From contig JAJRUC010000320.1 in the NCBI GenBank assembly GCA_024278015.1, forward strand, positions 1 to 45,404: DNA of 45,404 bases, read 5' to 3'. Positions 3,348-34,955 of the stretch are shown here, one piece after another; position 1 is the stretch's first letter, and each line of letters begins with the position of its first letter. The notes under the pieces were generated by a model. The model saw only the letters and a program-made list of their open reading frames with translations, did not search any database and had not been told where the DNA came from. This DNA comes from Chloroflexota bacterium. GTDB lineage: Bacteria; Chloroflexota; Anaerolineae; 4572-78. The position numbers were made by a program, and so were the translations under genes.

Positions 3348-4025
3348 TCAAAAATTTTCCTCCGGATTCACGCCGCGCACGGCGGCCAGATAGCCTGCCG
3401 CCAGCGTTATCATTAAATTGATAACGGCCCACAAGCCGGCCATCAACAGACTCCCTTCCAGGGTGATGAACCAGATTTCAAAGCCGGTGATGAAAGTCAA
3501 CAGGCCCTGCCCCACTTTTAGCGGGTGGCCGGTAAAAAGCAACACCAGCAGGCCGATGATCATCAGCCAATACACCGAGAGCGTCACCGTATGGGGCAGG
3601 TGGCCCAGCGGGTACGATTGCGCCAGCGAAACCGCCGTGACGCCGGCCAGCAGCATGGTCATCAGCCGAAAAGCGCGTCCGGGGGGAAAGATGTTGCCGC
3701 TGTTGGGAGTAGTGGTCAGCAAAGTGCGCAGGCCGTGAGTAGCAAAGGTTAATCGCTGCCGCCAGCCCGCCTGCCGGGCCGAAAGATACAGCATCAGGCC
3801 GATGAACAGCCCCACCAGCACTTTGGCATAGCCGATTTCCGGGCGCAACAGCCGGCCCACCACCAGCCCCATCGTCAGGTATTGCCCGGTCAGCAAGCCC
3901 ACCGAAAGCCGCCAGTCTTCTATCAGGAACAGCAAGCCGCCGGTTACAAAAAACAGCAGGGTGGCCGCTTCCAGCGGCAGCCGGCCTGTCAGGTTGAAGA
4001 GCGCGTTTATCGTTAAATCGGTCAC
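3348..4025 (-). CDS. small polytopic membrane protein of unknown function (in a HyfE/NuoK-like position between two antiporter-like subunits)
   Basis: 225 aa with about 6-7 TM segments. GTG start overlaps the stop of the upstream gene (GTGA at 4022-4025), indicating translational coupling. Confidence 0.5.
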   Translation of the reverse strand: MTDLTINALFNLTGRLPLEAATLLFFVTGGLLFLIEDWRLSVGLLTGQYLTMGLVVGRLLRPEIGYAKVLVGLFIGLMLYLSARQAGWRQRLTFATHGLRTLLTTTPNSGNIFPPGRAFRLMTMLLAGVTAVSLAQSYPLGHLPHTVTLSVYWLMIIGLLVLLFTGHPLKVGQGLLTFITGFEIWFITLEGSLLMAGLWAVINLMITLAAGYLAAVRGVNPEENF

Positions 4026-16749: not shown

Positions 16750-17745
16750 TTATTCCTTGTCTTTGGCGCAACGGAAGCCGATGTCGTCGTTGGCGGTAAT
16801 GGTGGGGTCGCCGCCGTTGCGATTGGTGGTAGTCACAAATGCCTCCTCATCGAACCAGCCGCCCCCGCGCAAGCCACGAGTTTCCGGGTTGTAAAAGGGG
16901 TCCTGGTAGTTGCTGCCGGGGTAGGCTTGATAGGCGGAGGCAACCCACTCTTTAACGTTGCCGGCCACATCGAACAAGCCGTACGGGTTGGCCGGGAACG
17001 TCCCCACCGGCAGGGTGCGGCGCTGGCCGCTGTCTTTGCCGTTGAACATTGTGGGGTCGTAGGTATTCCCCCACGGAAAAAGGAAGCCGTCGGGGCCGCG
17101 CGCGGCTTTTTCCCATTCAAATTCGGTGGGCAGCCGTTTGCCCGCCCATTGACAAAAAGCCTGGGCATCGAAAAACGTGACAAATACCACCGGGTTGTTC
17201 TCTTTCCCTGCGGGGAAGACCCAGCGCCAGTTTTGGGGGCTGTTTTGCTGTTCACGATACGTTTGGTAGCCGGTAGCATCCACAAAGGCGGCGAAATCGG
17301 CATTGGATATTTCGTAGGCATCAATTGAAAAGGCGGGCAAATCCATTTTCTGGGCCGGGCCTTCATTTTGTTCGCTGTTGTCGTTGCCCAGCAAAAATGC
17401 GCCGGCCGGAATTTCCATCATAACATCGGTGATGGCCGGGGCCGGGGTGGGTGTGGGCGCTGGTGTGCTGTCTGCGGCGGGTTCTGTGGGCGGAATTGAC
17501 GGGGTGCGGGTGGGAGTAGGGCTGGGACGCGGCGTGGAAGTGGGCGGTAATGGCGGCGGTGTGGCGGTGGGTTTGAGTTTGACCACAGTGGGCGTTGGCG
17601 AAGTAGTTGAACGCGCCGTGGCCCGGGCCACTGATTTATCTTCCACCCGGTCAACAATATCGCCGCAGGCAGCGACATTCAGGGTCATCAGTGCCAGCAA
17701 AAAAAACAGCAGCATCCCTTGATGCAAAAATTTTCCGGTGCGCAT
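16750..17745 (-). CDS. formylglycine-generating-enzyme (FGE/SUMF1) domain lipoprotein with Pro/Thr-rich linker
   Basis: The C-terminal domain has GKRLPTEFEWEKAARG, GNVKEWV and RGGGWF (FGE-sulfatase fold motifs). Lipobox LNVAACG is present. Start set at ATG 17745 with an AGGAG RBS. Confidence 0.8.
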   Translation of the reverse strand: MRTGKFLHQGMLLFFLLALMTLNVAACGDIVDRVEDKSVARATARSTTSPTPTVVKLKPTATPPPLPPTSTPRPSPTPTRTPSIPPTEPAADSTPAPTPTPAPAITDVMMEIPAGAFLLGNDNSEQNEGPAQKMDLPAFSIDAYEISNADFAAFVDATGYQTYREQQNSPQNWRWVFPAGKENNPVVFVTFFDAQAFCQWAGKRLPTEFEWEKAARGPDGFLFPWGNTYDPTMFNGKDSGQRRTLPVGTFPANPYGLFDVAGNVKEWVASAYQAYPGSNYQDPFYNPETRGLRGGGWFDEEAFVTTTNRNGGDPTITANDDIGFRCAKDKE

Positions 17746-18044
17746 CCACGTCTCCTGAAGGGGTTTGATATTATCAAAAGCCGGCAATTCTTGAATAACG
17801 CAACAGAGAGCAATTCAAGCCGCGACATCAAAACTGCAAACAAAAAGCAAAACGCTTCATCCATCCATCGTTGCTTTTGAAGTGGGGTGAGCAATATAAA
17901 ATTTATCAAAAACCATTGACTTTTTTAGTATAACGGCATGGCGATGTTGTGTCAAACTTTGATTAAGGCTCAGAAGAATATCATTATGTGATTTTTGTTT
18001 TGCGCATGTGCGAAAAATCACGAAAGTTATGTGACATTTGTCAC

Positions 18045-18108: not shown

Positions 18109-18468
18109 ATGCAGGTGCAGGGAAATATGAAACGACCGAACACCCAGGAATTAAGAGAAATGCATGCCACATTATGCCAGGCCTTGGCCGATCCAACTCG
18201 CATCGCGCTTCTATATGAGCTTGGTAATGGCCCCAAGCACGTAAATGAATTTGTAAATGCCCTGAATTTGCCTCAGGCAACCGTCTCCCGGCATTTGAAA
18301 ATGCTGCGGGAGCGCTCGTTGGTAAATACCAGGCGAGAAGGCTCGTATATCTACTACAGTTTGGCTGATGAGCGAGTTTTAGGCGCTTTGGATATTATGT
18401 TTTCCGTTAAAAATGACATTTTGGTTCGACAAGGAAATCTGGCAAAAACTTCTTCACAAACCGACTGA
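18109..18468 (+). CDS. ArsR/SmtB-family winged-helix transcriptional regulator
   Basis: LADPTRIALLYELGNGPKHVNEFVNALNLPQATVSRHLKMLRERSLV is the ArsR HTH core. There is a single Cys and no ELCVCD metal site. ATG 18127 is an alternative start. Confidence 0.85.
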   Translation: MQVQGNMKRPNTQELREMHATLCQALADPTRIALLYELGNGPKHVNEFVNALNLPQATVSRHLKMLRERSLVNTRREGSYIYYSLADERVLGALDIMFSVKNDILVRQGNLAKTSSQTD

Positions 18469-18482
18469 AAGTAGGTGATGCA

Positions 18483-19466
18483 ATGCAACCTCTAAAACCA
18501 TTCTCTTTACTGTTGGTTGGCATGGTGCTGATTGTTGTCGGCATGGTGCTGGCTATCCCTCAACCAGCCGAAGCCCAGTGTGGATCTTCGGTTTCGTCTT
18601 GTAAAACGTGTCACGAAACCCGGGGCGAAGACTCTGTCAATACCGAAGGTGCGTGGCACACTGAACACGCTTTTGGTGATTTTTGCGAATTTTGCCACGC
18701 CGGTAACGTGCAGGCCGGCGATAAAGCAGGGGCGCACGAAGGGTTGGCCGAGCCGCTGGGCGACATTGCCGCCAGTTGTCAGGGTTGCCACCCCAATGAC
18801 TTGATGGAGCGCGCCGAAAAATACGCCTCCGTTTTGGGGGTGGAAATCGGTGGTGGCGCCGACAGTGGCAGCAATAGCGACAACAGCAGCAACACCGGTG
18901 GCAGCGGTAACAGCGATTCCGGTAGTGGGGCGACGGCCCCCGTCACGAGTGTTTCCGCGCCGTTGGGCGGAGAGGAAATTGACTACAACCTCCTTTACAT
19001 TGAAACCATCACCCCCGAACCACTCATTAAAAACTGGGGCAACATCATTTTGATTTTGATGAGCGTCGCCGTGGCGGGCGCCTTTTTTGTGACGGCCTGG
19101 AGTTGGGAAGGCTGGGGTAAAGTGGCTGCCGGGTGGATTAACGACAACGTCAATCCCCTTACCGAAGCTGTCTTGGAGGCAAATACCGCCGTCACCGTTG
19201 AAGATGAGCAGGCCGGTTCCATCCCCTCTTCCACCGAACTGGCCGCGCTGTTTGAACGCAAACCGGAACTGAAAACCCTGTGGCCCAAGCTGGCAGAAGG
19301 AAATTCTGTAATGCTTAGAGACCTGAGCCAGATTTTAAGCGACGAAAAACAGGGCGCCCATTTTCTACATACGGTTAGCCGCCTTGACTTCAAATTGGCC
19401 TCGGCCTTGAAGCAGTTGGGCGAAAACGACAGAGAACTTTTATTGGCTCTGGTTAAAGAAATATAA
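18483..19466 (+). CDS. membrane-anchored triheme c-type cytochrome with cytoplasmic C-terminal tail
   Basis: Signal peptide (..PQPAEA/Q) and three CxxCH motifs (CKTCH, CEFCH, CQGCH). A Gly/Ser/Asn linker is followed by one TM (WGNIILILMSVAVAGAFFVTAW) and then an uncharacterised helical tail of about 115 aa. Confidence 0.8.
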   Translation: MQPLKPFSLLLVGMVLIVVGMVLAIPQPAEAQCGSSVSSCKTCHETRGEDSVNTEGAWHTEHAFGDFCEFCHAGNVQAGDKAGAHEGLAEPLGDIAASCQGCHPNDLMERAEKYASVLGVEIGGGADSGSNSDNSSNTGGSGNSDSGSGATAPVTSVSAPLGGEEIDYNLLYIETITPEPLIKNWGNIILILMSVAVAGAFFVTAWSWEGWGKVAAGWINDNVNPLTEAVLEANTAVTVEDEQAGSIPSSTELAALFERKPELKTLWPKLAEGNSVMLRDLSQILSDEKQGAHFLHTVSRLDFKLASALKQLGENDRELLLALVKEI

Positions 19467-19483: not shown

Positions 19484-20017
19484 ATGAGCAAAGTTATGCG
19501 TTGGTTCAAATCGCCCGAATGGTCGCCCTATATTGGGGGGGCCGGGTTAGGGCTGCTGGGCATCCTCGCCCTGCTGTTTACCGACCGCCTGTTTGGAGCC
19601 TCTGGCGCGTTTGAAAATGTGGCTGGCTCTATTATGCACGTTATTTCGCCTGCATTGGCCGAAAATATGTACTGGAAGTTTATTATGCCTGCCGGGTTTG
19701 GTTTTGGGGTAATGATGCTGATTGGCATCTTCCTCGGCTCGATGGCTTCGGCGCTGATTTCCGGTACGTTTAAACTGCGCGCCGTTTCCGATGACCAGTG
19801 GGTGCAGGTGTTCGGCCCCAGCCGCTGGAAGCGATGGGGCATGCTGTTTGGGGGCGCAATTTTGCTTGAGTACGGCGCGGGCATCGCCGGAGGCTGCACC
19901 AGCGGCCTGGCAATTTCCGGCGGTGTGCAACTGGCTCCGGCGGCCTTCCTGTTTATGGCCGGTATGTTCATCTCCGGCATTATTACGGCAATGATACTGT
20001 ACGGAAAGAGGTATTAA
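19484..20017 (+). CDS. YeeE/YedE-family (sulfur/selenium transport, DUF395-type) membrane protein, half-size
   Basis: 177 aa with 4-5 TM segments. The conserved loop GIAGGCTSGLAISG is present. AAAGGAGA RBS. Confidence 0.85.
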   Translation: MSKVMRWFKSPEWSPYIGGAGLGLLGILALLFTDRLFGASGAFENVAGSIMHVISPALAENMYWKFIMPAGFGFGVMMLIGIFLGSMASALISGTFKLRAVSDDQWVQVFGPSRWKRWGMLFGGAILLEYGAGIAGGCTSGLAISGGVQLAPAAFLFMAGMFISGIITAMILYGKRY

Positions 20018-20019
20018 TA

Positions 20020-20571
20020 ATGACAGCTTTACTTCCCGCCTTGATTGTTGGCTTTGCGTTTGGCTGGATTTTGCAAAAATCCCGCTTAACGCAATACGCA
20101 AAAATTGTTAACGTTTTCCGCTTTACCGATACCGCAGTTTTAAAATTTATCCTCACCTCCATTGTGGTTGGCGCGGGCGGCATTTACTTGCTCAAGGATA
20201 TGGGTTTGGTGGCTTTAACCGGAACCACCCCCACCTATATTGTCGGTAATCTGTTGGGTGGCCTGATTTTTGGCGCCGGCATGGCCGGCGCCGGATTTTG
20301 ACCGGGCACTTGCGCCGCCGGTGGCGGCCAAGGCAATGTGGATTATCTGATTCCCGGTGTGTCAGGTTTTTTAGTTGGCGCTATCCTCTTCGGTTTAACA
20401 TACGGTGATGTCTTCCCGGTGATTTCTGCCATCGCCAACCTGGGCAATACTTACATGCCCGAATTGTTCAACGTCAATCATTGGTTACTCATCATCTTTT
20501 TGGCCCTTTTCTCTGTCTATCTGTTTTATATCCTGTCCAAAAAGGGTGAATTCAGAAAAGACAGTCTTTAA
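20020..20571 (+). CDS. second YeeE/YedE-family half-protein interrupted by in-frame TGA at 20299-20301 (candidate selenocysteine codon; alternatively a pseudogene)
   Basis: ORFs 20020..20301 and 20338..20571 share one frame. Read-through gives 183 aa with ..GAGMAGAGF-[TGA]-PGTCAAGG.., so the TGA sits where the family has GFCPG Cys. A SECIS-like hairpin follows. Confidence 0.6.
20309..20332 (+). promoter_or_regulatory. SECIS-like stem-loop downstream of the in-frame UGA
   Basis: CUUG-C-GCCGCC-GGU-GGCGGC-CAAG has a 4+6 bp stem with one bulged C. The G/U-containing apical loop begins 18 nt after the UGA. Confidence 0.5.
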
Positions 20572-20771: not shown

Positions 20772-23033
20772 ATGACTGATACCAAAAATTTACCCCCTGC
20801 CGAAGACTCCACACTGAATCCATCGCTCTCCCGCCGCCAATTTATGGGCCTGGGCTTGGGCACAGCCGCCGGGGCGGCCTTACTGGGCAAATACACCCTG
20901 CTGCAATCTGCCGACGGCCAAAAGACCGCCGGCAAGCGCGGCCATTATCCCCCCACCAGCTTTGACCGGGAAGTATACACCATGTGTGAAATGTGCGTAT
21001 GGCGATGTGGGGTAAAAGCTAAAGTAAAAGATAACGTTGTTTACAAGCTCGATGGCAACCCCTTCCATCCCCATTCTCGTGGAATGTTGTGTCCGCGCGG
21101 GCAGGCGGGTGTGGCCACCCTGTACGACCCCGACCGCCTGAAATATCCCCTCATTCGCAAGGGCGCTCGTGGCGAAGGGAAGTGGGTGCGGGCCAGTTGG
21201 GAAGAGGCCCTAGATTACGTTGCCAGCCGTATGCTGGAAATTAAAGACACCTACGGCCCCGAAGCAATGGTTTTCAGCACCACCCACAACTTAATCCAAA
21301 CCCAATTTGAAAACCTGCTCAAAGCCTATGGCTCTCCCAATTACGGCACTCAGCGTTCGTTGTGTTTTAATGCCATGATTACCTCGAACCTGCTCACTTA
21401 CGGCATGGAAGAACCGGGCCGTGAGTATTCGCAGGTCAAATACATCATCCTCACCGGCCGTAACTTGCTTGATGCTATCTCTAATTCAGAAACGCAAGAC
21501 CTGGTGGCTGCTTTAAGCCGGGGCGCAAAACTGGTGGTGCTGGACCAGCGTTTTACCAAAACCGCCGCCAAAGCCGATATGTGGCTACCCGTCAAACCGG
21601 GCACAGACCTGGCCTTTTATCTGGCAATGCTCAACGTTATCATCACCGAAGGTCGCTACAATGAGCGCTTTGTTGAAGAAAATACCGTTGGGTTTGAAGA
21701 ACTGAAAGCAACAGTACAGCAATACACCCCCGAATGGGCCGCCAGTAAATGCGAAATCCCGGCAGAAACTATCCGCCAGATTGCTCGTGAATTTGCCGCA
21801 GAAGCGCCTCACGTTTTTGCCCACCCCGGTTGGCGAACCAGCAACTTCACCAACTCGTTCCAAACTTCGCGTGCCGTGGCTATCTTAAACGCCATTGTGG
21901 GCAACTGGGAACAACCCGGCGGCTTTTTTGCGGCAGCAGGCGAAGGAGGCGGCCTGGAACTTGGCTCTGTGCCGCAGCCCCCTTACCCCCGCGTCAGCGC
22001 CTTGCGGCTGGATGGCGTGCCCTGGAAATACCCGCTGGTTCCGCTTAAACTTGGCGTGTTCCAGGAAATCCGCGACAACATCTTGAGCGGAGAACCCTAT
22101 CAGGCGCATGGCTGGTTCATTTACCGCCAAAACCCGGTCAACTCTTTGCCGGAACGCCGTAAAACGATGGAAGCCCTCAGTAAACTCGATTTCATCGTCA
22201 CCACCGATATCAGTATGAACGATACGGCCTGGTTCTCTGACGTGGTGCTGCCAGAGGCCTCTTATCTGGAGCGCTACGACCCCTTGCACGTGATGGGCAA
22301 CACCCTCTTTTTGCGTCAGCCGGTGGTTGAGCCGCTATTTGAAAGTAAACCCGGTCTGTGGATTTTTAAAGAACTGGGTACCCGCCTGGGGCTGGCCGAT
22401 TTCTTCCAGTATGAAGATGAAGAAGACTACATTCGCCAGCAAATTGCGCCGTTGGACATATCGCTGGAAGAGTTGAAGACTCGCGGCTATTACACCGCCC
22501 CCACCGAAGCTGGCAGCGCAGGAGCGGGTGAACAGAAATTTACCTTCAATACCCCCAGCGGCAAAATCGAACTGGCATCTGAAGTGTTGCGCAATAGCGG
22601 CTTTAATGCGGTTCCACAATGGGAAATTCCGACCCTTAATCAGCAGGATGAATTCTATCTGCTTTCCGGGAAAGTGGCGCAGCACACCCAATTTGCCACA
22701 CATAACAATCGACTTTTGCACGAAAGACAACCCGGCAATCCACTGTGGATTAATCCTGAACCCGCCGCCCAACGCAAACTGAAAGATGGCGATATGGCGT
22801 GGGTGGAAAGTGCCGGCGGCAAAGTTAAAACGCCGGTTCACGTCACCGAGCGAATCCGACCCGATAGCGTCTTTATGGTTCCGGGCTTTGGACATACCAG
22901 CAAAGGACTGACCACCGCCTACGGTGCCGGCGTTAGCGATAGCGACTTGCACGTAACCTTCACCGACCCGATTTCCGGCTCTCAAGCGTTGAGCCAGACG
23001 TGTGTAAAAATCTATAAAGCAGACGAATCGTAA
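20772..23033 (+). CDS. Tat-exported molybdopterin (DMSO-reductase family) oxidoreductase catalytic subunit, PsrA/PhsA-like; substrate unknown
   Basis: Twin-arginine leader SRRQFMGLGLGTAAGAA. FS0 cluster motif C-x2-C-x3-C-x27-C (CEMCVWRC...LCPRG). Candidate Mo-ligand Cys in QRSLCFNA. 753 aa. Start set at ATG 20772. Confidence 0.85.
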   Translation: MTDTKNLPPAEDSTLNPSLSRRQFMGLGLGTAAGAALLGKYTLLQSADGQKTAGKRGHYPPTSFDREVYTMCEMCVWRCGVKAKVKDNVVYKLDGNPFHPHSRGMLCPRGQAGVATLYDPDRLKYPLIRKGARGEGKWVRASWEEALDYVASRMLEIKDTYGPEAMVFSTTHNLIQTQFENLLKAYGSPNYGTQRSLCFNAMITSNLLTYGMEEPGREYSQVKYIILTGRNLLDAISNSETQDLVAALSRGAKLVVLDQRFTKTAAKADMWLPVKPGTDLAFYLAMLNVIITEGRYNERFVEENTVGFEELKATVQQYTPEWAASKCEIPAETIRQIAREFAAEAPHVFAHPGWRTSNFTNSFQTSRAVAILNAIVGNWEQPGGFFAAAGEGGGLELGSVPQPPYPRVSALRLDGVPWKYPLVPLKLGVFQEIRDNILSGEPYQAHGWFIYRQNPVNSLPERRKTMEALSKLDFIVTTDISMNDTAWFSDVVLPEASYLERYDPLHVMGNTLFLRQPVVEPLFESKPGLWIFKELGTRLGLADFFQYEDEEDYIRQQIAPLDISLEELKTRGYYTAPTEAGSAGAGEQKFTFNTPSGKIELASEVLRNSGFNAVPQWEIPTLNQQDEFYLLSGKVAQHTQFATHNNRLLHERQPGNPLWINPEPAAQRKLKDGDMAWVESAGGKVKTPVHVTERIRPDSVFMVPGFGHTSKGLTTAYGAGVSDSDLHVTFTDPISGSQALSQTCVKIYKADES

Positions 23034-23074: not shown

Positions 23075-23656
23075 ATGGCTAATCCCGCAAAAGAATCCAA
23101 TACCCCCCCTAAAAAACGATGGGGTTTTGTGATGGAACCGGAGCGATGTATCGACTGCGAAGCCTGTATGGTGGCCTGCAGTGTTGAAAACCAGGTGCCG
23201 CTGGGCGAACATCGCAACTGGATTTCTCACAAAGAGATGGGCATCTTCCCCGATTTGAACATCACCTTTATGCCCGAAAATTGCCACCATTGCAGCAACC
23301 CCCCGTGCGAGCGCGTATGCCCCACCGGAGCCACCTACCGTCGAGACGATGGTATTGTGCTGGTAGATTACGATAAGTGCATCGGTTGTAAATATTGCAT
23401 GATGGCCTGTCCCTACGATGCCCGCTACGTGAACGAAGAAAAACAGGCCGTTGACAAGTGTACCTTCTGCGTCCATCGGCTGGATGCGGGCTTACCGCCA
23501 GCCTGTGTAGAAACCTGTGTGGGCGGGGCGCGTCACTTTGGCGACCTGAACGACCCGTACAGCGAAGTCTCTAAATTATTGGCCACGCACGATTATTATC
23601 AGCTTTACGAAGAAGCCGGTACTGGCCCAGCCATTTATTACATTAGAGGAAAGTAA
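23075..23656 (+). CDS. 4Fe-4S ferredoxin-type electron-transfer subunit (PsrB/DmsB-like)
   Basis: Four Cys clusters are present: CIDCEACMVAC, CHHCSNPPCERVCP, CIGCKYCMMACP and CTFC...C..C. Confidence 0.9.
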   Translation: MANPAKESNTPPKKRWGFVMEPERCIDCEACMVACSVENQVPLGEHRNWISHKEMGIFPDLNITFMPENCHHCSNPPCERVCPTGATYRRDDGIVLVDYDKCIGCKYCMMACPYDARYVNEEKQAVDKCTFCVHRLDAGLPPACVETCVGGARHFGDLNDPYSEVSKLLATHDYYQLYEEAGTGPAIYYIRGK

Positions 23657-23657
23657 A

Positions 23658-24659
23658 ATGCACGAAGTTGATTTTCACTGGAATATATTAATTGTAATCT
23701 ATCTGTTTACGGCTGGCATTAGCGCCGGAGCATTTGTTATCTCTGGGTTGGCAACGTATTTGGGGGGTGCCAAATACAAACGTATCAGCCGTATTGGCGC
23801 TTTGATTGCTCCCTGGCCGCTCGTATTCGGCCTTTCGATGTTGATGTTCGATCTGACAAAACCGCTGCAATTCTGGTGGCTCTTTTTGACGGTGCAGTGG
23901 ACATCGCCCATGTCAATTGGAAGCTGGCTGTTAACCTTCTTCTCCATCCTCTCCAGCCTCTACTTTTTGCTGTGGATTCCCCGCCCCTGGCGAGACCTGC
24001 TGCGCGTGCCGTATCGTTGGGCAGACGTATTTTCGCCGCGCCGCTGGCAGCCGATGACCCGTGAAGTGGTTGGCATCAGCCGTCGGGTGCTGGCCGCCGT
24101 TGGCTTCCCCATCGGGTTGGGGGTGGGCATGTATACCGGCATATTGCTGGGGGCTATCCCTTCTCGCCCTTTGTGGAACACACCAATGATCGCGCAACTC
24201 TTTCTCTTTTCGGCGATGAGCAGCGGCGTGGCAACCGTACTATTAATTGCCGCCGCCACGCCACCCGCCAAAGAAGGGCATGACCACATGCACCACGAAC
24301 GCCATTTTCTGGTAACGGTTGACGCTGTGTTGATTGTGCTGGAAATTTTTATTGTGATACCCTTCTTCTTGCATCAAGCCTTGAATACATGGAGTTCCGC
24401 CGAATCGGTTAATTTGGTGTTGGGTGGCCCTTTTACGCTGCCCTTCTGGGGAGGCGTTATTTTACTCGGTTTGCTGCTGCCCCTGGCCATCGAAGGATTT
24501 GAGCTGTATCCTGTCGTTTGGAAGGAAGCTGCGGTAAAATATAGTCGTCTGTGGGGCGGCGCAAGTGCCGTTATGGTGCTGGTTGGCGGATTTTTGTTGC
24601 GATACGTCTTTGTTTACGCCGGTCAGGTTTCTCACTTCTTGCCCTTATTAGAAAGGTAG
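23658..24659 (+). CDS. NrfD/PsrC-type integral membrane quinone-interacting subunit
   Basis: 333 aa with about 8 TM segments. It immediately follows the FeS subunit (2-nt gap), the canonical PsrABC order. Confidence 0.85.
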   Translation: MHEVDFHWNILIVIYLFTAGISAGAFVISGLATYLGGAKYKRISRIGALIAPWPLVFGLSMLMFDLTKPLQFWWLFLTVQWTSPMSIGSWLLTFFSILSSLYFLLWIPRPWRDLLRVPYRWADVFSPRRWQPMTREVVGISRRVLAAVGFPIGLGVGMYTGILLGAIPSRPLWNTPMIAQLFLFSAMSSGVATVLLIAAATPPAKEGHDHMHHERHFLVTVDAVLIVLEIFIVIPFFLHQALNTWSSAESVNLVLGGPFTLPFWGGVILLGLLLPLAIEGFELYPVVWKEAAVKYSRLWGGASAVMVLVGGFLLRYVFVYAGQVSHFLPLLER

Positions 24660-24665
24660 GATTTT

Positions 24666-25370
24666 ATGACCATCATAAAGAAGTTGCCCGCTTATTTGGC
24701 CCTGGTTGTGGCTTTGGTTTTGGTTGGATGTAATACCACCGCTGACGAACCCTTAGCCACGGCTCCATCCAAACCCGTAACCGTGGCCGGCAATCTGGAA
24801 GCGAACTATATTCCCAATACAGAAATGGGGCGTCAAGCCTGGCTTGAACAACAATGCGATGATTGCCACGGCCCCATTGGTATGGGCGGCATTGGCCCCA
24901 AACTGGCCGATACCGCCATGAGCTTCGATAGCTTTTTGGTGACGGTGCGCACGGCTATCCTGCCCAAACCCGCTTATCCTGCCGAAGTTTTACCCGGTGA
25001 ACGTGTCTACGATATTTACGCCTGGTTGCGCGCCCAGCAAAATCAACCCGTCGCCCCTGCCCCAACCACTTCTACCACCGAATTGCCCTCTTTTGGAGGA
25101 GAAACGCCTTCCATAGAAGATGCAATGGGTATGACCATTTGGTCTTACGGGGGATGCAGCGTTTGCCACGGTGTGTTTGCCCAGGGCGGCAAAGATGCGC
25201 CCCCACTGGCCGGTATCAACTATCCGGTTGAAGAGGAACTGAGCCGTATGCGCCAAACCGCCTCCGAAATTACGGAACACGCCGCCGATAACATCAGCGA
25301 CGATGTGTTTGCCGAATTGTATCGCTGGTTGCAGGCCGGTTGCACCTACACCGAAGACTGCAATCAGTAA
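24666..25370 (+). CDS. diheme class-I c-type cytochrome lipoprotein
   Basis: Lipobox LVLVGC and two CxxCH motifs (CDDCHGP.., CSVCHGV..), each followed by GG..PPL, which is typical of class-I cytochrome c domains. Confidence 0.85.
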   Translation: MTIIKKLPAYLALVVALVLVGCNTTADEPLATAPSKPVTVAGNLEANYIPNTEMGRQAWLEQQCDDCHGPIGMGGIGPKLADTAMSFDSFLVTVRTAILPKPAYPAEVLPGERVYDIYAWLRAQQNQPVAPAPTTSTTELPSFGGETPSIEDAMGMTIWSYGGCSVCHGVFAQGGKDAPPLAGINYPVEEELSRMRQTASEITEHAADNISDDVFAELYRWLQAGCTYTEDCNQ

Positions 25371-25460: not shown

Positions 25461-26003
25461 TTATCGGGCCAACTCTGTCGCAAACTCGGCCAACCGTTTG
25501 CCCAACTCCCGATAACAATCCAACTGAGCATGCTTCTCTAAGTCAACGGCAAATTGCGGCAACCAACGCAGCAGGTGGTTGGCTTCAAAGCGGCGGCGGG
25601 CTTGTTCAACCGATTCCGGCGCTTCAGATTGCGCGGCCAAATCCAGCAGATAAGCCGAAAATTGCAGCTCAACCGGCAAAAAATCGGCAGTTTCCTGGGC
25701 TTGCTGTATGTCCCATTCCGCATAAAAATTAGCCACGGCGGCGGTGGTGGCCGTCAATAGTTGCCTGTCCACATACGCCGATTCATACGGTGGGCAGGGC
25801 ACGCCTTCGGCGTTGTTTACAAACAGGCGCGTATGCTCCACCTGCAAATCATCCAGCGACGTTGCGGCAAATTGCGCCGCCAACGCCGTTGCCCACGGCT
25901 GGCCCACGGCCTGGGCCGCCTCTTGCCATTGCAAGTGCAGTTCGGGTTGCGGATAAAGCAAATACAGGCTAAAAAACTGGTACAGCGCGGCAGATACTGG
26001 CAT
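25461..26003 (-). CDS. TorD/DmsD/NarJ-family molybdoenzyme maturation chaperone
   Basis: 180 aa. The pattern LYQFFSLYLLYP..., HTRLFVNN, PCPPYESAY, ADFLPVELQFSAYL matches the TorD family. Confidence 0.8.
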   Translation of the reverse strand: MPVSAALYQFFSLYLLYPQPELHLQWQEAAQAVGQPWATALAAQFAATSLDDLQVEHTRLFVNNAEGVPCPPYESAYVDRQLLTATTAAVANFYAEWDIQQAQETADFLPVELQFSAYLLDLAAQSEAPESVEQARRRFEANHLLRWLPQFAVDLEKHAQLDCYRELGKRLAEFATELAR

Positions 26004-26005
26004 AA

Positions 26006-26458
26006 TTATACCCCCACTCGCGTTTCCGGCGATACGCTTTGGCCGGGATGAATGAAAATTTGTTCCCCATCAAGATTTATTTCCAGGTACGTCATGGGCG
26101 ATGTGGCCGGCCCGTTCAGCACAGCGCCGTGAGCATTAAACCGGCTGCCGTGACACGGACACTGGAAAGTATTATCGGCCACTTGCCCCACCGTGCAACC
26201 CAGGTGCGGGCAAATGGCGCTGATGGCATACAAGCCGGCCTCATCGCGCCCCAACCAGGCTTTGGCTGCCGGCACAAACGTGAGGCTGTTGGCGGCAAAA
26301 TCGCCCATCAACCCGGCTTCTACCGGCCCCGGCAATGGTTGGGTAATTGGCGGCGCAAGAAATTTAAGGCCGCCCTTCACCATCGCCCAGGCGACGGTCA
26401 GCAAGCCGATGTTGCCCAGCCAAATTAAAAACCGGCGGCGGGATGTTTCTTCTGACAT
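26006..26458 (-). CDS. Rieske [2Fe-2S] protein with Tat signal
   Basis: SRRRFLIWLG leader, plus CPHLGC and CPCHGS Rieske boxes. Start set at ATG 26458 with an AGGAG RBS. Confidence 0.9.
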   Translation of the reverse strand: MSEETSRRRFLIWLGNIGLLTVAWAMVKGGLKFLAPPITQPLPGPVEAGLMGDFAANSLTFVPAAKAWLGRDEAGLYAISAICPHLGCTVGQVADNTFQCPCHGSRFNAHGAVLNGPATSPMTYLEINLDGEQIFIHPGQSVSPETRVGV

Positions 26459-26477
26459 AGATTGCTCCTGCAAAAAA

Positions 26478-27866
26478 TTAACGCGCATAGGCGTGGCACT
26501 GGTGGCAATACCGTGATTCCTGTTCGGCGACAGTTTGTTGGCAGCCAGACCCCATTACCGGATTGACCGGATACGTTTTGCCGGTAACTTTGCTGGTTAA
26601 AATTAAGCGCCCGTCAACCTGCTTGGTATTGCCCATCAACTCGCCCCGTTCGGTGATGATAACCTGGTCGCCGATATTCAAAGTGTAATTGGGGTTTATT
26701 TGCGCCTGGCGCAGCGCCGTTTGGTGTTGGGCCGATACGGTAACGACGGTGGGTAACTCTTCCAGGGTGCCGTGGCAGGTGTGGCATTGGGTGTATTGCA
26801 TTTCCTGTTGCTTGGGGTGAATATCGCCGTCGCCCATAATTTCGGCGGACGTGTGGCACTCAATGCAGTCGAGTTCCCATTCGCATAGCGTAAATTCGCC
26901 GATGGGCTGGTAATATTCGCGCAGGCGGCGGCCTTCGGCGGGCATTTGGGCAGAGATGGGCGCGCCCGCCGGAGGGAGGTCATCTCTCAGCAGAAAATCC
27001 ATCTGCCGCAGCGAATAATTGCCCCGGTTGTGGCAGTGGTTGCATTGGTAAAACGGAATGGCAGCGGTCAGTTCGTGGCGGCGCATATGGCCCGGCTCGT
27101 CGGGGGGAATGGTGGGGTCGCTGCCTTGATACAGGCCATCGTTTTGATAAATTACGTGGCAGGCGGCGCAACCCGTAGAGCGATAAAAGTACGGTTCGGC
27201 GCGGGGTGCGGCAGAAAGATGGCAGCCCGCATCCAGACAATTTTCGGCAAATTTTTGGTCGATGGGGTGGCCGGATTGCGCGGGAAATGCTGTCAGTTCA
27301 GCCAACCCTGCCGCTGTGGCGGGGTGGTCATCGGTGATGCCGTACACGCCGTAGAGGGGCGTTTCGGTGGATTGCGCCCCAAAAGAGAAGCGCACCTGGG
27401 CAATGCCCCCGGCGTAGGTTCCCTGCAAACTGCGCAAAACGCCATCGACGTGATTTTTACCTTCATCGGCAAATCCGTTGTGGCAATTGAGGCCGCAACT
27501 TTCCTGGGCCACCAGCAAGTCGCCGGGGTTTTTGCCCCCCCGCAACCCGGTGTGCGCCTGGTCTGCCTTAAGCGAAAGCCCATTTCCGCCGTGGCAACTG
27601 ATGCAGCCAAACGCCTCTACCGGATGCGAAGGGCTGATTTCCGCCAGCCCCATGTGGCACGACAGGCACAATTCCGGCTGGCCCGTCAGTTGCGGCACAA
27701 CCTGCCGCACCCGAATATCAGCGGGCTGTTGAGTGCGCTTAAAATACATGCGCTGGTATTGCTGCCAGGGTTGATTTTGCGTTTGCTGAAAAACAAGGAT
27801 GACGGCGGCAATTAACAATAGTATGCTGCTGACGAAGAGCGCCACGCGCCGATTAGTGGTGAACAC
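26478..27866 (-). CDS. membrane-anchored multiheme c-type cytochrome (up to 9 hemes)
   Basis: N-terminal TM segment. Seven CxxCH motifs (CLSCH, CISCH, CAACH, CNHCH, CIECH, CHTCH, CHQCH) plus CGLNCH (Cx3CH) and CLDAGCH (Cx4CH). GTG start. Confidence 0.85.
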   Translation of the reverse strand: MFTTNRRVALFVSSILLLIAAVILVFQQTQNQPWQQYQRMYFKRTQQPADIRVRQVVPQLTGQPELCLSCHMGLAEISPSHPVEAFGCISCHGGNGLSLKADQAHTGLRGGKNPGDLLVAQESCGLNCHNGFADEGKNHVDGVLRSLQGTYAGGIAQVRFSFGAQSTETPLYGVYGITDDHPATAAGLAELTAFPAQSGHPIDQKFAENCLDAGCHLSAAPRAEPYFYRSTGCAACHVIYQNDGLYQGSDPTIPPDEPGHMRRHELTAAIPFYQCNHCHNRGNYSLRQMDFLLRDDLPPAGAPISAQMPAEGRRLREYYQPIGEFTLCEWELDCIECHTSAEIMGDGDIHPKQQEMQYTQCHTCHGTLEELPTVVTVSAQHQTALRQAQINPNYTLNIGDQVIITERGELMGNTKQVDGRLILTSKVTGKTYPVNPVMGSGCQQTVAEQESRYCHQCHAYAR

Positions 27867-27954
27867 AGGTTAAAAAGAAAATCCTTTCGTTGGTGTGAGG
27901 CGTGAAGACGTGAAACGTGACAAAATCATGCCTCACGCCTCACGTTTTCATGCC

Positions 27955-29031
27955 TCACCGCGCCGCCGCAATGAGGGTCAGAACCACGACCACAAGCGTC
28001 AACCCGGCAAAAATGACTTGCGGCTGCCAGCGTATTCGGGCGAACCACTCGCCCCGGCCCGGCCCGCGCCGGTCGAACAGGGGAATGAGAGCCAGCAGCG
28101 CCAACCCCGCCAGTGGAATGAGCCAACCGGCCCACAGCGGAGACAGGTAGCGCAGCATTTCTTGAATAGCTAAAAAGAACCACGGCGCTTTGGTTTCGCT
28201 GGCCCCGGCGGTTTCTAAATTGGCGATTGCGCCCAAAACGGGCGGGGCCAGCGCCGAAAGGATAATCAGCGCGGCAGTGGCCGCAATGGCGGTGATGGTT
28301 TCCCTGAAGAAGAGCGTCTTGCGGGTAATGAAGGTTCGGGGGCGGGCGCGGGTTGGCGCAGGGTGCGAGATACCGCCATCTACCCGAATACGCCAGATGT
28401 GATACCCCACCGCGCCAATGCCCGGCAACGTTAACCCCATAATGTGCCAGGCGTAAAATCGAAGCAACGCGCTGTTACCCAGGGCGGTATCGCCTACAAT
28501 CAGCCGGTACAATCCCTCTCCAATGCCTGGAATTTCTTTGAGCAGATTGGTGCCAACCAGCAACGCCCAAATACTGCCTTCGTCCCAGCGCAGGGTGTAG
28601 CCGGTAAAATCCCACAGCAGCACAATCACAAACAGCCCCACCCCAATCAGCCAGTTGAAGTCTCTGGGGGAGCGATAGCCGCCGGTAAAAACCACCCGCG
28701 CCATGTGCAGCGCGGCGAAAACGACCATCAATTGGGCCGCCCAGTAGTGTAGCGAGCGCACAAAGCCGCCAAAAGCAACCACGCTATCGATGAGGGCCAG
28801 GCTGGGATAGGCTTGTTCTACGGTGGGAACGTAGTAGAAGGTCAGCAAAATGCCGGTCACAATGGTGATGATGGTAGCTAAAACGGCCAACCCGCCCAGC
28901 CCGAAAGTGTAGGTGAGCCGCGCTCCGGCGGCGGGAATTTGGGGCGGGTGCAAGTTGTAGATGAAACTTTTGTTTTTGCGCCAGAGGCGAATACCGAACC
29001 GGCGGCGTGGGGGGGGCGTTATTTGAATCAT
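27955..29031 (-). CDS. cytochrome b (fused b6 / subunit-IV type) of a Rieske/cytochrome b complex
   Basis: RSLHYWAAQLMVVFAALHMARV (bis-His helix B), FNWLIGV, and the C-terminal APWFFLAIQEMLRY (PEWY-like) motif. Confidence 0.9.
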   Translation of the reverse strand: MIQITPPPRRRFGIRLWRKNKSFIYNLHPPQIPAAGARLTYTFGLGGLAVLATIITIVTGILLTFYYVPTVEQAYPSLALIDSVVAFGGFVRSLHYWAAQLMVVFAALHMARVVFTGGYRSPRDFNWLIGVGLFVIVLLWDFTGYTLRWDEGSIWALLVGTNLLKEIPGIGEGLYRLIVGDTALGNSALLRFYAWHIMGLTLPGIGAVGYHIWRIRVDGGISHPAPTRARPRTFITRKTLFFRETITAIAATAALIILSALAPPVLGAIANLETAGASETKAPWFFLAIQEMLRYLSPLWAGWLIPLAGLALLALIPLFDRRGPGRGEWFARIRWQPQVIFAGLTLVVVVLTLIAAAR

Positions 29032-29079: not shown

Positions 29080-29970
29080 TCAGCCGGTTGACCGCCCATT
29101 GGTGGCAATCAACGCCTCTGCCGCCGAAACCGGGCCGGACCACGGGCCGGGTTTTTCCTGCTTCAGGGTGGTGACGGCCCCGGCCCATTGTGTTGCCTCT
29201 GCCGCCGAAAGGCTGAGCCGTTTGCCCAGATAGGTGGCAAAGCAGGTGTCTCCCCGGCCCGTGCGCCCGGCCAGCGCGCGCGGCGTGAAGGATGCCTGAT
29301 AGATTTCTCCGGCGGCGCAAACCGTCACCCCCGCCGATTGGGTGACGACAACTTCACGCGGGCCGTATTCGGCCAGGCGACGGGCGGCGGCGGTCAGGTC
29401 GGTCAGGCCGGTCAGCAATTCGGCTTCGGCCCGGTCAACCTTCAACCAGGTAACGTGCTTCAGCCCTTTTTCCATTTCCGGCCACTGTTTGAAGACCAGC
29501 GCGCCGTTTTCCCGCACCCGCACAAAGCCCTGAATATCCAACGCCACCGGGCCGCGCTCTGCCAGCAATTTAAGCAAGGGCAGGTCAACTTCCCCGGCAA
29601 TGATGGGGGTGACGGCGACAATGCGGGCCGGCGCGTCCGGAATGTCGGCGGCTTGAAACGGCCCGGCAAAATCGAGCAGTTTGCAAGTGCGACGTTCCAT
29701 ATCGGTTGAGCGATAAATATTTTCAATGCCGGATGTGGCCGGGGCGGCGGCGGCAAACATCTGCACGCCCACCGAGGTCAACTCATCCAGCAGGGTAAAA
29801 TCGGCGGGGTGCAGGCGGGTTGCCACCCCCACCTCAAGGCCCAACTGCCGCAGGGCCATGCTGCCGTAATACACTGCCCCGCCGGAAGCGGTTTCGCGTT
29901 GGCCATCGACGACCAGCACGTCTTTGGCAAAGTGACCCACCATCAGCAGGTCGAGTGGTGTGGTGTTCAT
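29080..29970 (-). CDS. PfkB-family carbohydrate/nucleoside kinase
   Basis: ORF 29080..30327. The kinase core starts at MNTTPLDLLMVGHFAKD, and GRGDTCFATYL is the PfkB anion-hole motif. The upstream 119 codons overlap the PHP gene and are Pro/Arg-rich, so the start was moved to ATG 29970. Confidence 0.8.
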   Translation of the reverse strand: MNTTPLDLLMVGHFAKDVLVVDGQRETASGGAVYYGSMALRQLGLEVGVATRLHPADFTLLDELTSVGVQMFAAAAPATSGIENIYRSTDMERRTCKLLDFAGPFQAADIPDAPARIVAVTPIIAGEVDLPLLKLLAERGPVALDIQGFVRVRENGALVFKQWPEMEKGLKHVTWLKVDRAEAELLTGLTDLTAAARRLAEYGPREVVVTQSAGVTVCAAGEIYQASFTPRALAGRTGRGDTCFATYLGKRLSLSAAEATQWAGAVTTLKQEKPGPWSGPVSAAEALIATNGRSTG

Positions 29971-30028
29971 AAAGTTCTCCCGTGATTTTCGTTTCTGATT
30001 TCTGGTTTTTAGCGATTCCGGCAACCAA

Positions 30029-31114
30029 TTACCAATCTCTAATTGCCGCCAGAATATCGCCGCAGGTTTGGACCGCCGGCGTTTTGGCCGGGCCGATGAA
30101 GATGGGGTTGGTGATGGCCAGGATATGGCCGGCGGCGCTGACCACATCCAGCCGAATCCAGCCGGCGTTGCCGGTTGACGGGGGCAGCGTGTATCCGAAG
30201 GCGGCGGGCGTGGCGGCAATGGGCTGGCGGGCGATGGTTTGCCCGTTGTGGATAAGGTGCGCTTCTGCCGGGGCGGGGCCGGCGGAGATGGTTGCTTGCA
30301 GGGTAATTTCGGCATCGGGGCGGGCAATTTCCCCCCCGATGCCGGTGGTTTGCCCCTCGGCGCGGGCCGTCAAATCAACTTCGGCGCCCATACTGACATA
30401 AACCCGATGCTCTTTGACGGCCTTCAGCACCGCCGCCACCGACAGGTTATCGGCGTAGACAAAGGTGGTGGGCCGGTTCAGTTGTTCGGCGGGTTTGTCG
30501 CCCTCCCAGGCGTGGGGCGCGGGGCGATGATAATCGCTGCCGCCCAAGGCGGTTATCCGCCGCCCGGCGTTTAACAGGGCTGTCCACAGGGCCACGGTCT
30601 GCGGATTGACGGTCGCGTTTATCGGGAAACTGGGGTCATTCCAGATTTCCAGGGCGGTGATGTATTGCCATTCGACCTCGTTAAACTGCCAGGCCCAGGG
30701 CGTGAGCAGGGGATGGTTGATGGAGCTGACCAGCCCCTGCGCGGCAATTCGGCGCACCAGGGCATTGATGCCGGTGTGGGGCGCGGGCAGGGTTTCCCAT
30801 TCTTCGTTGCCCAAAAGGCCGGCCATCCAGTCGCACTTGCCGGTCATGCCGAAGACGTTCATGTGGCCCAGGCGGGTGGTCACTTCAAGGCCGGGGATGC
30901 CCAATGCGGCCTCAACGCCGGCCAGTTCGTCAAAGGCGGCGATGGTGTTGTGGTCGGTCACAGCAAAGAAATCCAGCCCGCCGGCCCGCGCCACCTCGGC
31001 CAGACCGGCGGGGGGGTGGTGGCCGTCCCACGAGGCCGTGGTGTGGGCGTGAAAATCGCCCCGGTACCAGCCCGCGTTGGGATTGAACACTTTTGATACG
31101 GATAGCGCAGTCAT
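30029..31114 (-). CDS. PHP-domain (CehA/McbA-like) metal-dependent phosphoesterase
   Basis: GDFHAHTTASWDG, FFAVTDHNT and GLEVTT..GHMNVFG are PHP His/Asp motifs. 361 aa. Confidence 0.75.
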   Translation of the reverse strand: MTALSVSKVFNPNAGWYRGDFHAHTTASWDGHHPPAGLAEVARAGGLDFFAVTDHNTIAAFDELAGVEAALGIPGLEVTTRLGHMNVFGMTGKCDWMAGLLGNEEWETLPAPHTGINALVRRIAAQGLVSSINHPLLTPWAWQFNEVEWQYITALEIWNDPSFPINATVNPQTVALWTALLNAGRRITALGGSDYHRPAPHAWEGDKPAEQLNRPTTFVYADNLSVAAVLKAVKEHRVYVSMGAEVDLTARAEGQTTGIGGEIARPDAEITLQATISAGPAPAEAHLIHNGQTIARQPIAATPAAFGYTLPPSTGNAGWIRLDVVSAAGHILAITNPIFIGPAKTPAVQTCGDILAAIRDW

Positions 31115-33536: not shown

Positions 33537-34832
33537 TCATAAACTTTGCGCCGTCACCTTTCCGTGTGCGGCTACCGTTTCGATAATGGTTTTCACGAGT
33601 TCAAAATCAGATTCCGCATTGATGTCTTCAATGTAAATATCGCCCGGCCAGGCGAGCGTTGAACGCGGATGCCCGTTACGGGCCAGCGCTGCTGAAACGG
33701 TTTTGATTGCCTGCGCGTACTCGGCTGCGGTATCTGCAAGTTCCCGCTGCGCGGCCTTCCGGTCTGTAATACTGTTTCGGTCGATGCGCGTGGCCCCAAT
33801 GCCCAAATAGAGGGCTTTGCCGCGTTGAATTGCCTGATTTACATAGAACGAAACCGGCATTGTATCGGCCTCAAGCTTGATAACAAACTCCGGGCAGACG
33901 CTCAGTTTGAAGTCAATCAGTTCAGCCGGCGATTCTGCGCCCGATTTCGCTCTGTTTGTTTTTTTGCCACGGCGGCTTGCTGCTTTGCGCCGCCCGCCGT
34001 CGTCTGTCTGCGTCGGGCGGTCTCCCCGATAGTTGGACACAAAAACATGATTGCCCCAGGGGAAATTGTTTATCAGCTGCCGGACAGGAGGCGCTGCAAC
34101 TTCCCGACACAGACGCGGGCCAATGAAGAAGGGCGAACCGGAGGCGTCGGAGAGTTCGAGCCAAATATTCGGGAAGCGGTGCGCCAGGTGTTCCAGCCAG
34201 GGAACGAGGACCTGGTCGGTCAGGTGGTTCAGAAATTCAGCGACAAAACCGGGCGCATCAAGCAAAGCCACAATCAACGCTTCCTGCCCCAGAATGTCGG
34301 CGGCGAGGCTGTAGGGGGCCGATAAATGCGCAACCGGATTGAGGCCCGTCAGGTTTGTGAAACAGGCCAAATAATCGTCTATGATTTCGGGAATACCGTT
34401 TTCCATATTCGGCGTATCTATCTTGTGCCGGCTTGTTTGGGGAACCAGCGGTTTGTTCATATCCGGCCCGGGCGCGTGTTTGTCGGGATATATCATCGCT
34501 TGCCCCAGCGCCTCTACACTAAAAGCATAAACCGGCCATCCCAGGGTCAGCTTGCGCACCCCAAGTAAACGCTGGGTCATCAGTGTGGTGCGTACATAGC
34601 GTTGGGCATCGCCTTTATAGAATTCGGCGGAGGTTAAGCCGTAAAGCTGATTCAGTATCGTCAAGGTCAATAGATGAAGGGAGGTTGTTGGGCAAACCGA
34701 ATTCGCCGGAGCCGGTTCTTTAAAATCAGCGTCGCATTGTCCTGTTATGGCTGCATCAAAAAGCGCGCGCAACTTTGCCCGTGCTGCGTCATCGCCGGCT
34801 TGCCATTGAGCAAGCAGAGCGCTATTCATCAT
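33537..34832 (-). CDS. hypothetical protein, possibly URO-D / MtaA-like methyltransferase fold, with basic insertion
   Basis: ORF 33537..34868 (GTG). ATG 34832 is preferred (GGAAG 10 nt upstream). There is loose URO-D-like spacing (..SVEALGQ.., SAPYSLAADILGQEALIVALLDAP) and an insert DDGGRRKAASRRGKKTNRAKS. The fold call is low confidence. Confidence 0.4.
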   Translation of the reverse strand: MMNSALLAQWQAGDDAARAKLRALFDAAITGQCDADFKEPAPANSVCPTTSLHLLTLTILNQLYGLTSAEFYKGDAQRYVRTTLMTQRLLGVRKLTLGWPVYAFSVEALGQAMIYPDKHAPGPDMNKPLVPQTSRHKIDTPNMENGIPEIIDDYLACFTNLTGLNPVAHLSAPYSLAADILGQEALIVALLDAPGFVAEFLNHLTDQVLVPWLEHLAHRFPNIWLELSDASGSPFFIGPRLCREVAAPPVRQLINNFPWGNHVFVSNYRGDRPTQTDDGGRRKAASRRGKKTNRAKSGAESPAELIDFKLSVCPEFVIKLEADTMPVSFYVNQAIQRGKALYLGIGATRIDRNSITDRKAAQRELADTAAEYAQAIKTVSAALARNGHPRSTLAWPGDIYIEDINAESDFELVKTIIETVAAHGKVTAQSL

Positions 34833-34955
34833 AAGTTTAACGCTTCCATTCTGCAAAAAGACCACCACAGTCAGATGTCTTTTTGTATTTTTGCCGGTGC
34901 GACATCACCTGATTCTGCGCTGCAAGCGAGACCAACGGTTGGAATTCATTAAATA

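Follow-up and report, generated by a model that had tools for sequence, protein, structure and literature searches.

The 45,404-nucleotide stretch of a Chloroflexota bacterium (assembly GCA_024278015.1, contig JAJRUC010000320.1, forward strand), hereafter the window, contained a gene at 20020–20571 for a half-size protein of the YeeE/YedE transporter family with an in-frame TGA at codon 94. The TGA occupied the place of a conserved cysteine and was directly followed by a hairpin resembling a bacterial selenocysteine insertion sequence (bSECIS), so that selenocysteine (Sec) is proposed as residue 94 of the product. The gene and its features were as follows.

20020..20571, + strand: yeeB(Sec), 183 codons read through a UGA at codon 94; PmpB-like (N-terminal-half-like) subunit of a split YeeE/YedE, from Pfam, homologues, and the open frame
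20299..20301, + strand: in-frame UGA, proposed Sec94, from the Cys alignment in homologues and the same TGA in at least 240 contigs
20306..20334, + strand: SECIS-like hairpin within yeeB, GC-A-CUUG-C-GCCGCC-[GGU]-GGCGGC-CAAG-GC; apical loop, 20320–20322
20311..20313, + strand: codon of the additional Cys98 in the U-P-G-T-C motif, Cys in 304 of 305 Sec- and Cys-type members, with a putative partner or resolving role

The gene started with an ATG at 20020, just preceded by AAGAGG, and its frame reached the TGA at 20299–20301 after 93 residues. Beyond the TGA, 12 sense codons, PGTCAAGGGQGN (20302–20337), led to a GTG at 20338, past which the frame stayed open until a TAA at 20569–20571. The read-through product was composed of 183 residues (about 19 kDa) and contained the segment GAGMAGAGF-U-PGTCAAGGGQG; around the Sec site, Lys and Arg were absent over about 115 residues. 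The Pfam family Sulf_transp (PF04143) matched this product with 62.8 bits (cut-off 27) over residues 21–176, corresponding to positions 2–155 of the 310-position profile, and the match was a single stretch crossing the TGA. The region 20020–20571 is one gene that is continuous across the TGA, and the second open reading frame (ORF), 20338–20571, which starts with the GTG, was produced by ORF calling and is not a gene. A preliminary description of the window had given the same two ORFs, the same TGA, the 12 intervening codons, and the 183-residue read-through product, all of which were reproduced, and the family profile it had proposed as a check is the one that ran across the TGA. When the window was scanned for further candidates of in-frame TGA read-through, many chance cases were found in this G+C-rich DNA, none of them with supporting evidence.

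The best 120 of 448 homologues from a database search came from Anaerolineae and other Chloroflexota, were 180–187 residues long, and shared 52–75% identity over the full length. In a first alignment with 33 of these, the TGA column was Cys in all 33 sequences, within the motif G[FY]-C-PGTC. In the larger set the column was Cys in 119 of the 120 homologues; the lone exception, a Trp, stems from gene calling in which TGA was translated as Trp. U94 also aligned with Cys91 of Spirochaeta thermophila YeeE/TsuA (StYeeE), with an E value of 2e-07. The conserved Cys that the preliminary description had postulated for this column was thus found. Cys91 and Cys293 of TsuA are essential for thiosulfate uptake, as that description had stated, and their Ser and Ala replacements are inactive; the two residues are located about 7 Å apart at the narrow centre of the hourglass (PMC7449682).

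Two public collections, of genomes and of metagenomes, were scanned with the degenerate pattern GM...G[FY]-TGA-PGTC.AG. Contigs with a TGA in the context G[FY]-U-PGTC numbered at least 120 among the genomes and at least 120 among the metagenomes, and the later counts of Sec-type loci were drawn from the matches listed. Carriers with long contigs, from complete or nearly complete genomes, included JAOSJQ010000001.1 (3.65 Mb), OW818655.1 (a chromosome of 4.26 Mb), and CAVVUF010000001.1 (2.1 Mb). Among the genome matches listed, 115 loci were labelled Chloroflexota and about 117 genomes were represented, three of them with two copies, and a few matches were labelled Bacillota/Clostridiales or Eisenbacteria. 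Orthologues with TGA and orthologues with a Cys codon at the site, the search for which had been suggested at the outset, were therefore both found. The Sec-type sets for comparison comprised 223 loci with complete downstream sequence, 196 distinct proteins, 185 genes for the hairpin test and the tree, and 115 diverse sequences for the pairing analysis.

The frame was open for 83–100 codons past the TGA in 212 of the 223 loci, stopping where the Cys homologues stop, and the 196 distinct read-through proteins shared 46–78% identity with the window protein. The ratio of nonsynonymous to synonymous substitution rates (dN/dS) was approximately 0.15 downstream of the UGA (codons 108–179) versus 0.11 upstream. 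The codons downstream of the UGA are under purifying selection, and the absence of such selection, which the preliminary description had named as the mark of a pseudogene, was not observed.

Two separate Sec-type copies were located on different contigs in three metagenome-assembled genomes (MAGs), namely L022 and L041 (DRKO01), L031 and L048 (CAIQIV01), and L043 and L067 (CAZQQJ01); from these three MAGs, some genomes hold paralogous Sec-YeeB loci. The U-PGTC gene was also present in MAGs whose labels read Candidatus Eisenbacteria, Bacillota, and Clostridiales (L037, L044, and L045), and these copies could reflect horizontal transfer or mis-binning.

The hairpin began 7 nt past the UGA and its GGU loop was positioned 18 nt past the UGA. 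The core, CUUG-C-GCCGCC-GGU-GGCGGC-CAAG, occupied 20309–20332, and G-C pairs lengthened the stem to 20306–20334. The 6-bp GC upper stem was prolonged by 4 + 2 pairs around single-base bulges, and the hairpin was the minimum free energy (MFE) fold of the region, at −21.2 kcal/mol. In the E. coli SECIS element the critical loop bases are G23 and U24, counted from the U of the UGA. On the same count the loop of the window hairpin was G22, G23, and U24, and a GGUC tetraloop was present in a large subgroup. The general bSECIS model is said to be that of Zhang and Gladyshev from 2005. The form of the model used here has an apical loop of 3–9 nt whose first two positions hold G, an upper stem of 4–16 bp, a spacing of 16–37 nt from the UGA, and an MFE of −7.5 kcal/mol or lower (PMC13188914). 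The window hairpin agreed with the model in every respect: its loop was GGU, its upper stem had 6 bp and by itself reached −10.4 kcal/mol, and the spacing was 18 nt. The SECIS-like geometry that had been drawn from the letters of the window therefore held in its coordinates, in the predicted fold, and in each feature of the model.

A hairpin in agreement with the bSECIS model was present in 95.7% of the 185 Sec-type genes versus 17.8% of synonymous controls, in which the same peptide was encoded by codons resampled from the family's own usage. Four-fold synonymous sites carried 0.99–1.56 bits at codons 95, 99, 100, and 103 versus approximately 0.2 bits over the rest of the gene; the synonymous constraint is confined to the hairpin region. 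Among the 115 diverse orthologues, 90% of the cells were paired in register, versus 33–66% when the 3′ arm was slid by 1–3 nt. Compensatory changes were exemplified by the stems GCCGCU-GGU-AGCGGC and GCA-GGU-UGC. The loops seen were GGU, GGUC, CGGGA, and GGC, and three interchangeable forms of the hairpin (GGU, CGGGA, and GGUC) correlated with codons 99, 101, and 102, such as Val-GTC with Ser-TCC. In the Clostridiales homologue, a long hairpin after the UGA was kept with a different stem sequence.

When the 185 Sec forms and 120 Cys forms were placed in a neighbour-joining tree, the two forms were interleaved and at least 23 changes of state were required. Such dynamic switching between Sec and Cys is typical of selenoprotein families. 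The DNA of Cys-type genes was obtained from seven look-ups, and distant Cys-type genes did not have the hairpin structure (5–7 of 10 pairs); the comparison of Sec with Cys forms in this respect is only suggestive, because eight Cys-type sequences were available for it. No Cys-type paralogues were found within the fetched Sec-type loci.

From these comparisons, the UGA at 20299–20301 is very probably a Sec codon with an in-ORF SECIS element at the Cys91 equivalent of a PmpB-like YeeE subunit. The core of the preliminary description, Sec at the essential conserved Cys of a YeeE/YedE half together with a bacterial-type SECIS, is strongly supported by the Cys column, the hairpin, the selection on the downstream frame, and the recurrence of the TGA.

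The support for Sec94 is drawn entirely from sequence, and several observations weigh against the assignment. The window hairpin alone was not significant against dinucleotide shuffles, with a z of −1.7 and 10 of 200 shuffles as good, the region is G+C-rich, and Ala and Gly codons account for part of the pairing; it is the comparative data, and not the single-sequence fold, that show the hairpin to exceed chance. Strict compensatory covariation was sparse (3 pairs, 14 cells), yet none of 500 shuffles attained that count. Rfam gave no SECIS family, either for the window at the gathering threshold or for 20250–20400 at E values up to 10, where only noise was returned. Three close Cys-type homologues (69–72% identity; L245:1617-2174, L241:4001-4558, and L242:3431-3988) still carried a hairpin right after TGC or TGT, with 9 of 10 pairs or an 8-bp stem. 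These hairpins look like fossil SECIS elements that remained when Sec was recently exchanged for Cys. The alignment of Cys138 in the neighbouring YeeA subunit with Cys293 of StYeeE was weak, with an E value of 0.17. An AlphaFold2 model of YeeB alone, built from 34 sequences, had a mean pLDDT of 56.7, which was too poor for a reliable helix count, for measuring distances, or for searching by fold, and the placement of U94 in the pore is consequently taken from the TsuA sequence alignment only.

The machinery for Sec was also missing from the sequences at hand. The genes selA, selB, and selD and tRNA-Sec were not in the 45-kb window (37 ORFs by Pfam, and ARAGORN); ARAGORN detected neither a tRNA in the window nor a tRNA-Sec in the 248 fetched loci, and a tblastn search with an approximate E. 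coli SelD sequence had no match in the window or in any locus. In the same phylum, the cultured Anaerolinea thermophila UNI-1 and Caldilinea aerophila have been tabulated as SelD+/SelA+/SelB+, with four and three known selenoproteins, respectively (Peng et al. 2016, Tables S1 and S2), and tRNA-Sec has been reported from Chloroflexi (PMC5389517).

Among the alternatives, the one that survives best is Sec-independent read-through by near-cognate or suppressor decoding as Trp, Cys, or Arg, with the hairpin as a generic stimulator, and it is highly improbable. Hairpins downstream of stop codons can promote read-through, which together with the lack of Sec machinery in the window would suit this explanation. 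The position, however, needs Cys-like chemistry, since the Ser and Ala replacements of YeeE are inactive (PMC7449682), and the hairpin had the specific bSECIS features of a G-rich loop 18–20 nt from the UGA. In addition, the repeated interchange of Sec and Cys is a known signature of selenoprotein families, and SelA, SelB, and SelD are present in A. thermophila and C. aerophila (Peng 2016).

A genuine stop at the UGA is highly improbable. It would leave a 93-residue fragment of two to three helices, perhaps with a separately initiated C-terminal piece, and the public records do have this length. In exact look-ups, the Sec-type gene was deposited as a 92–93-residue 'YeeE/YedE family protein' or 'hypothetical protein' (for example MCB0119123.1, MBK6326182.1, OQY91726.1, and RefSeq WP_345308173.1), and a profile built from the first 93 residues had 2,318 matches (E ≤ 1e-10), of which the best 120 were all 92–93 residues long. 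The window also has a GTG 12 codons past the TGA. However, codon 107 was start-capable in only 37 of the 185 orthologues and no other restart position was conserved, whereas the best-conserved part of the family was the 12-codon segment that separates the TGA from the GTG. The synonymous constraint and the hairpin were located exactly at the place expected of a SECIS, and the essential residue equivalent to Cys91 would be lost by termination. With Sec at codon 94, the short records are truncated proteins, and the gene is invisible in annotation because it is cut at the UGA.

A sequencing or assembly error, with TGC or TGT read as TGA, or a recent pseudogene would need one base change but is excluded by the comparative data, namely the identical TGA in at least 240 independently assembled contigs of different projects and technologies with diverged flanks, which answers indirectly the concern of the preliminary description about the assembly, and the intact downstream frame with its low dN/dS. 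A genetic code with UGA as a sense codon for Trp or Gly, to which the one database protein with Trp at the TGA column could point, is likewise excluded, as had been anticipated, by the stop-codon usage of the window, where TGA was the true stop at full domain length in 9 of 32 Pfam-supported genes and no other gene had an internal TGA.

The yeeB gene with its proposed Sec94 was part of an operon with the following genes.

18109..18468, + strand: ArsR/SmtB-family regulator at the operon head; Pfam HTH_5, NCBIfam HTH_metalloreg 83.7 bits (cut-off 55)
18483..19466, + strand: cytX, membrane-anchored protein with three CxxCH haem motifs, no family assigned; from reading of the sequence, with a weak Cytochrome_C7 match only
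19484..20017, + strand: yeeA, PmpA-like (C-terminal-half-like) subunit; Sulf_transp 61.5 bits (cut-off 27), profile 170–309 of 310; Cys138 in GGCTSG, encoded by TGC at 19895–19897
20772..23033, + strand: PsrA/PhsA-type molybdopterin oxidoreductase with the twin-arginine translocation (Tat) signal SRRQFMG; PDB 2VPW (Thermus Psr), E 3.8e-145
23075..23656, + strand: PsrB-type 4Fe-4S subunit; Pfam Fer4_11; in 81 of 87 eligible loci
23658..24659, + strand: PsrC/NrfD-type membrane quinol-interacting subunit; Pfam NrfD, E 5.5e-49; an NrfD gene at the same place in Cys-type loci

YeeA was located directly upstream of YeeB in all 182 Sec-type loci compared (182/182). The motif GIAGGCTSG that had been noted for this upstream paralogue was confirmed, and the loop Cys of YeeA was never TGA but Cys in 223 of 223 loci. 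CytX was upstream in 142 of 142 eligible Sec-type loci, with a length of about 280–330 residues, and every Cys-type locus fetched had at the same position a gene for a protein of about 237–323 residues that had no Pfam family. Neither Pfam nor NCBIfam assigned CytX to a family; its conserved place next to YeeA and YeeB makes it a probable functional partner. The CytX protein of the window (327 residues) was composed of an N-terminal signal or transmembrane segment, the haem motifs CKTCH, CEFCH, and CQGCH, a Gly/Ser/Asn-rich linker, a second transmembrane helix, and a C-terminal domain of about 120 residues.

The ArsR-type regulator was present in 82 of 119 eligible loci. It had sub-threshold NCBIfam matches to TsoR (65.7 bits, cut-off 115) and to the sulfite-sensing repressor BigR (48.4 bits), which are compatible with a sulfur- or metalloid-responsive operon and are no proof of one. 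The PsrA-type gene was downstream in 125 of 132 eligible loci. Its product matched the NCBIfam PhsA model with 615 bits, under the cut-off of 694; its closest relative of solved structure was Thermus PsrA, and by sequence it is placed in the PsrABC/PhsABC family at large and not in a substrate class. The gene order of ArsR, trihaem cytochrome, YeeA, YeeB, and PsrABC was kept in the Sec-type loci and also in the Cys-type loci wherever the flank was available.

Around the operon, a dihaem-type cytochrome c was encoded just after psrC (24666–25370, + strand). Of the 52 loci whose flank was long enough, only 3 had a homologue of it there, so it does not belong to the conserved operon. The − strand beside the operon (25461–29031) encoded the rest of a respiratory module, namely a cytochrome b, a multihaem cytochrome c, a Rieske protein, and a TorD/NarJ-like chaperone. 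Just upstream (16750–17787, − strand) was a gene for a protein with an FGE-sulfatase (formylglycine-generating-enzyme-like) domain and a long Pro/Thr-rich linker. Elsewhere in the window, four ORFs of 225–525 residues on the − strand (3348–4025, 4022–5599, 29080–30327, and 33537–34868) had no Pfam family at E values up to 1e-5.

In the proposed mechanism, the UGA at 20299–20301 would be decoded as U94 by SelB and tRNA-Sec, guided by the hairpin at 20306–20334. The product would be a 183-residue membrane protein that pairs with YeeA, presumably as a heterodimer. U94 would be placed where TsuA/YeeE has Cys91, in a re-entrant loop that corresponds to loop LB, and Cys138 of YeeA where it has Cys293; the two residues together would border the substrate path at its narrow centre. 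YeeA and YeeB would be co-transcribed with the ArsR-type regulator, the trihaem membrane cytochrome, and a Tat-exported polysulfide/thiosulfate reductase of the PsrABC/PhsABC type. Because of this co-transcription with a Psr-type respiratory enzyme, the split transporter most likely moves reduced sulfur (or selenium) species through the membrane in conjunction with that enzyme, both the substrate and the direction being read from the context. Sec may replace Cys as a more reactive residue for chalcogen relay, possibly together with the near-invariant Cys98 (UxxxC) in a redox role.

A wider interpretation is offered tentatively, and is rather doubtful at present. The Sec in the transporter constriction may form a selenium-dependent chalcogen relay (U94, C98, and C138 of YeeA) that is genetically coupled to a Psr-type reductase and is in use across a large part of the Anaerolineae and related Chloroflexota, invisible to annotation. 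If such a relay exists, Sec has a role outside soluble redox enzymes, and selenium supply modulates sulfur (or selenium) respiration or transport in abundant bacteria of sediments and anaerobic digesters. Very few selenoproteins are known to be membrane transport proteins.

The natural series of Sec and Cys forms, with its repeated switches, could be used to tell apart two roles of the pore cysteine in YeeE, a chemical one (a relay of the persulfide or selenosulfide type) and one in hydrogen bonding, a question left open by the structural papers on TsuA. In ecological terms, the conserved operon with a Psr/Phs-type reductase ties a need for selenium to dissimilatory sulfur metabolism in the dominant, poorly cultured Anaerolineae. 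For annotation, at least 120 database clusters, and probably many hundreds, are deposited as fragments, which a selenoprotein-flagged hidden Markov model would repair.

When compared with the bSECIS of the E. coli fdhF type, the hairpin shared its location within the ORF directly after the UGA and a small apical loop starting with GG(U) at 18–20 nt from the UGA. The stem sequence, however, was unrelated, Rfam gave no match, and binding by an Anaerolineae SelB is only predicted.

The TsuA/YeeE proteins of E. coli and S. thermophila (the latter with PDB codes 6LEO and 8J4C) share with YeeA and YeeB a fold that is homologous by sequence, with U94 corresponding to Cys91 and Cys138 of YeeA, in the weak alignment, to Cys293; in the mechanism proposed for them, the loop cysteines hand a sulfur atom on from one to another. 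TsuA is a single protein of 330–350 residues and nine helices with three cysteines (C22, C91, and C293), whereas two genes were present here and the C22 position was Thr24 in the window protein and Thr in 292 of 305 family members. TsuA needs a TusA-like partner, TsuB/YeeD, and no TusA-like domain was found among the operon genes (ArsR, CytX, YeeA, YeeB, and PsrABC). The role of TsuA is assimilation, whereas the present genes are in a respiratory operon. The YedE/FdhT proteins share the superfamily and a link to selenium, but they are not themselves selenoproteins, selenium being their presumed cargo, and the present locus had no YedF/FdhU neighbour. The scores for the NCBIfam TsuA models were 46.9 against a cut-off of 400 (NF052577) and 32.2 against 645 (NF041049), and those for the YedE/FdhT models were 32.5 against 350 (NF033796) and 23.2 against 200 (TIGR04112). 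As all of them were far under the cut-offs, the Chloroflexota proteins are regarded as a separate subfamily.

The closest architecture was that of PmpA/PmpB from Serratia sp. ATCC 39006, which are proposed to form a heterodimer (PMC11582611). These are also two adjacent half-size genes, with the C-terminal-half-like gene first and one loop Cys in each half; the PmpB type is the N-terminal half with the Cys91 equivalent, and the PmpA type is the C-terminal half with the Cys293 equivalent. The same split was observed here, with YeeA and YeeB matching profile positions 170–309 and 2–155, respectively, and adjacent wherever compared, the Cys293 side being weakly aligned. The Pmp proteins have about 130 residues, four helices, and one Cys each, whereas YeeA and YeeB have 177 and 183 residues and the B subunit has Sec and an extra Cys (UPGTC). 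The score with Pfam DUF6691 was 21 bits against a cut-off of 27, and the genomic context of the Pmp genes differs from the present operon.

The preliminary description was mistaken in one respect, namely that no Sec-containing YeeE/YedE had been described. A predicted Sec-containing YeeE/YedE family, with five proteins from five organisms, is catalogued in Table S3 of Peng et al. 2016 (ISME J), and two reviews by Zhang et al. (PMC9312934 and PMC13188914) list Sec-YeeE/YedE under PF04143 and give WP_012471001.1 as an example. The main texts of GOS 2008 and Peng 2016 make no mention of YeeE, which appears only in Table S3 of the latter. Both the catalogued family and the present form are computational predictions, sharing PF04143 and a Sec predicted for the conserved loop Cys. 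The motif of the catalogued family is given as GUxSG in the 2026 review (PMC13188914), whereas all the pattern matches here had G[FY]-U-PGTC; the two are set apart by the described motif and not by an alignment of the sequences. The catalogued family was found in only five of the bacterial genomes covered by Peng et al. 2016, whereas the present form was found in at least about 117 species genomes, almost all of them Chloroflexota, and it differs further in its lineage, its split half-size architecture, and its PsrABC operon. The Chloroflexota form adds a new, very widespread member to an already predicted selenoprotein family and does not amount to a new principle.

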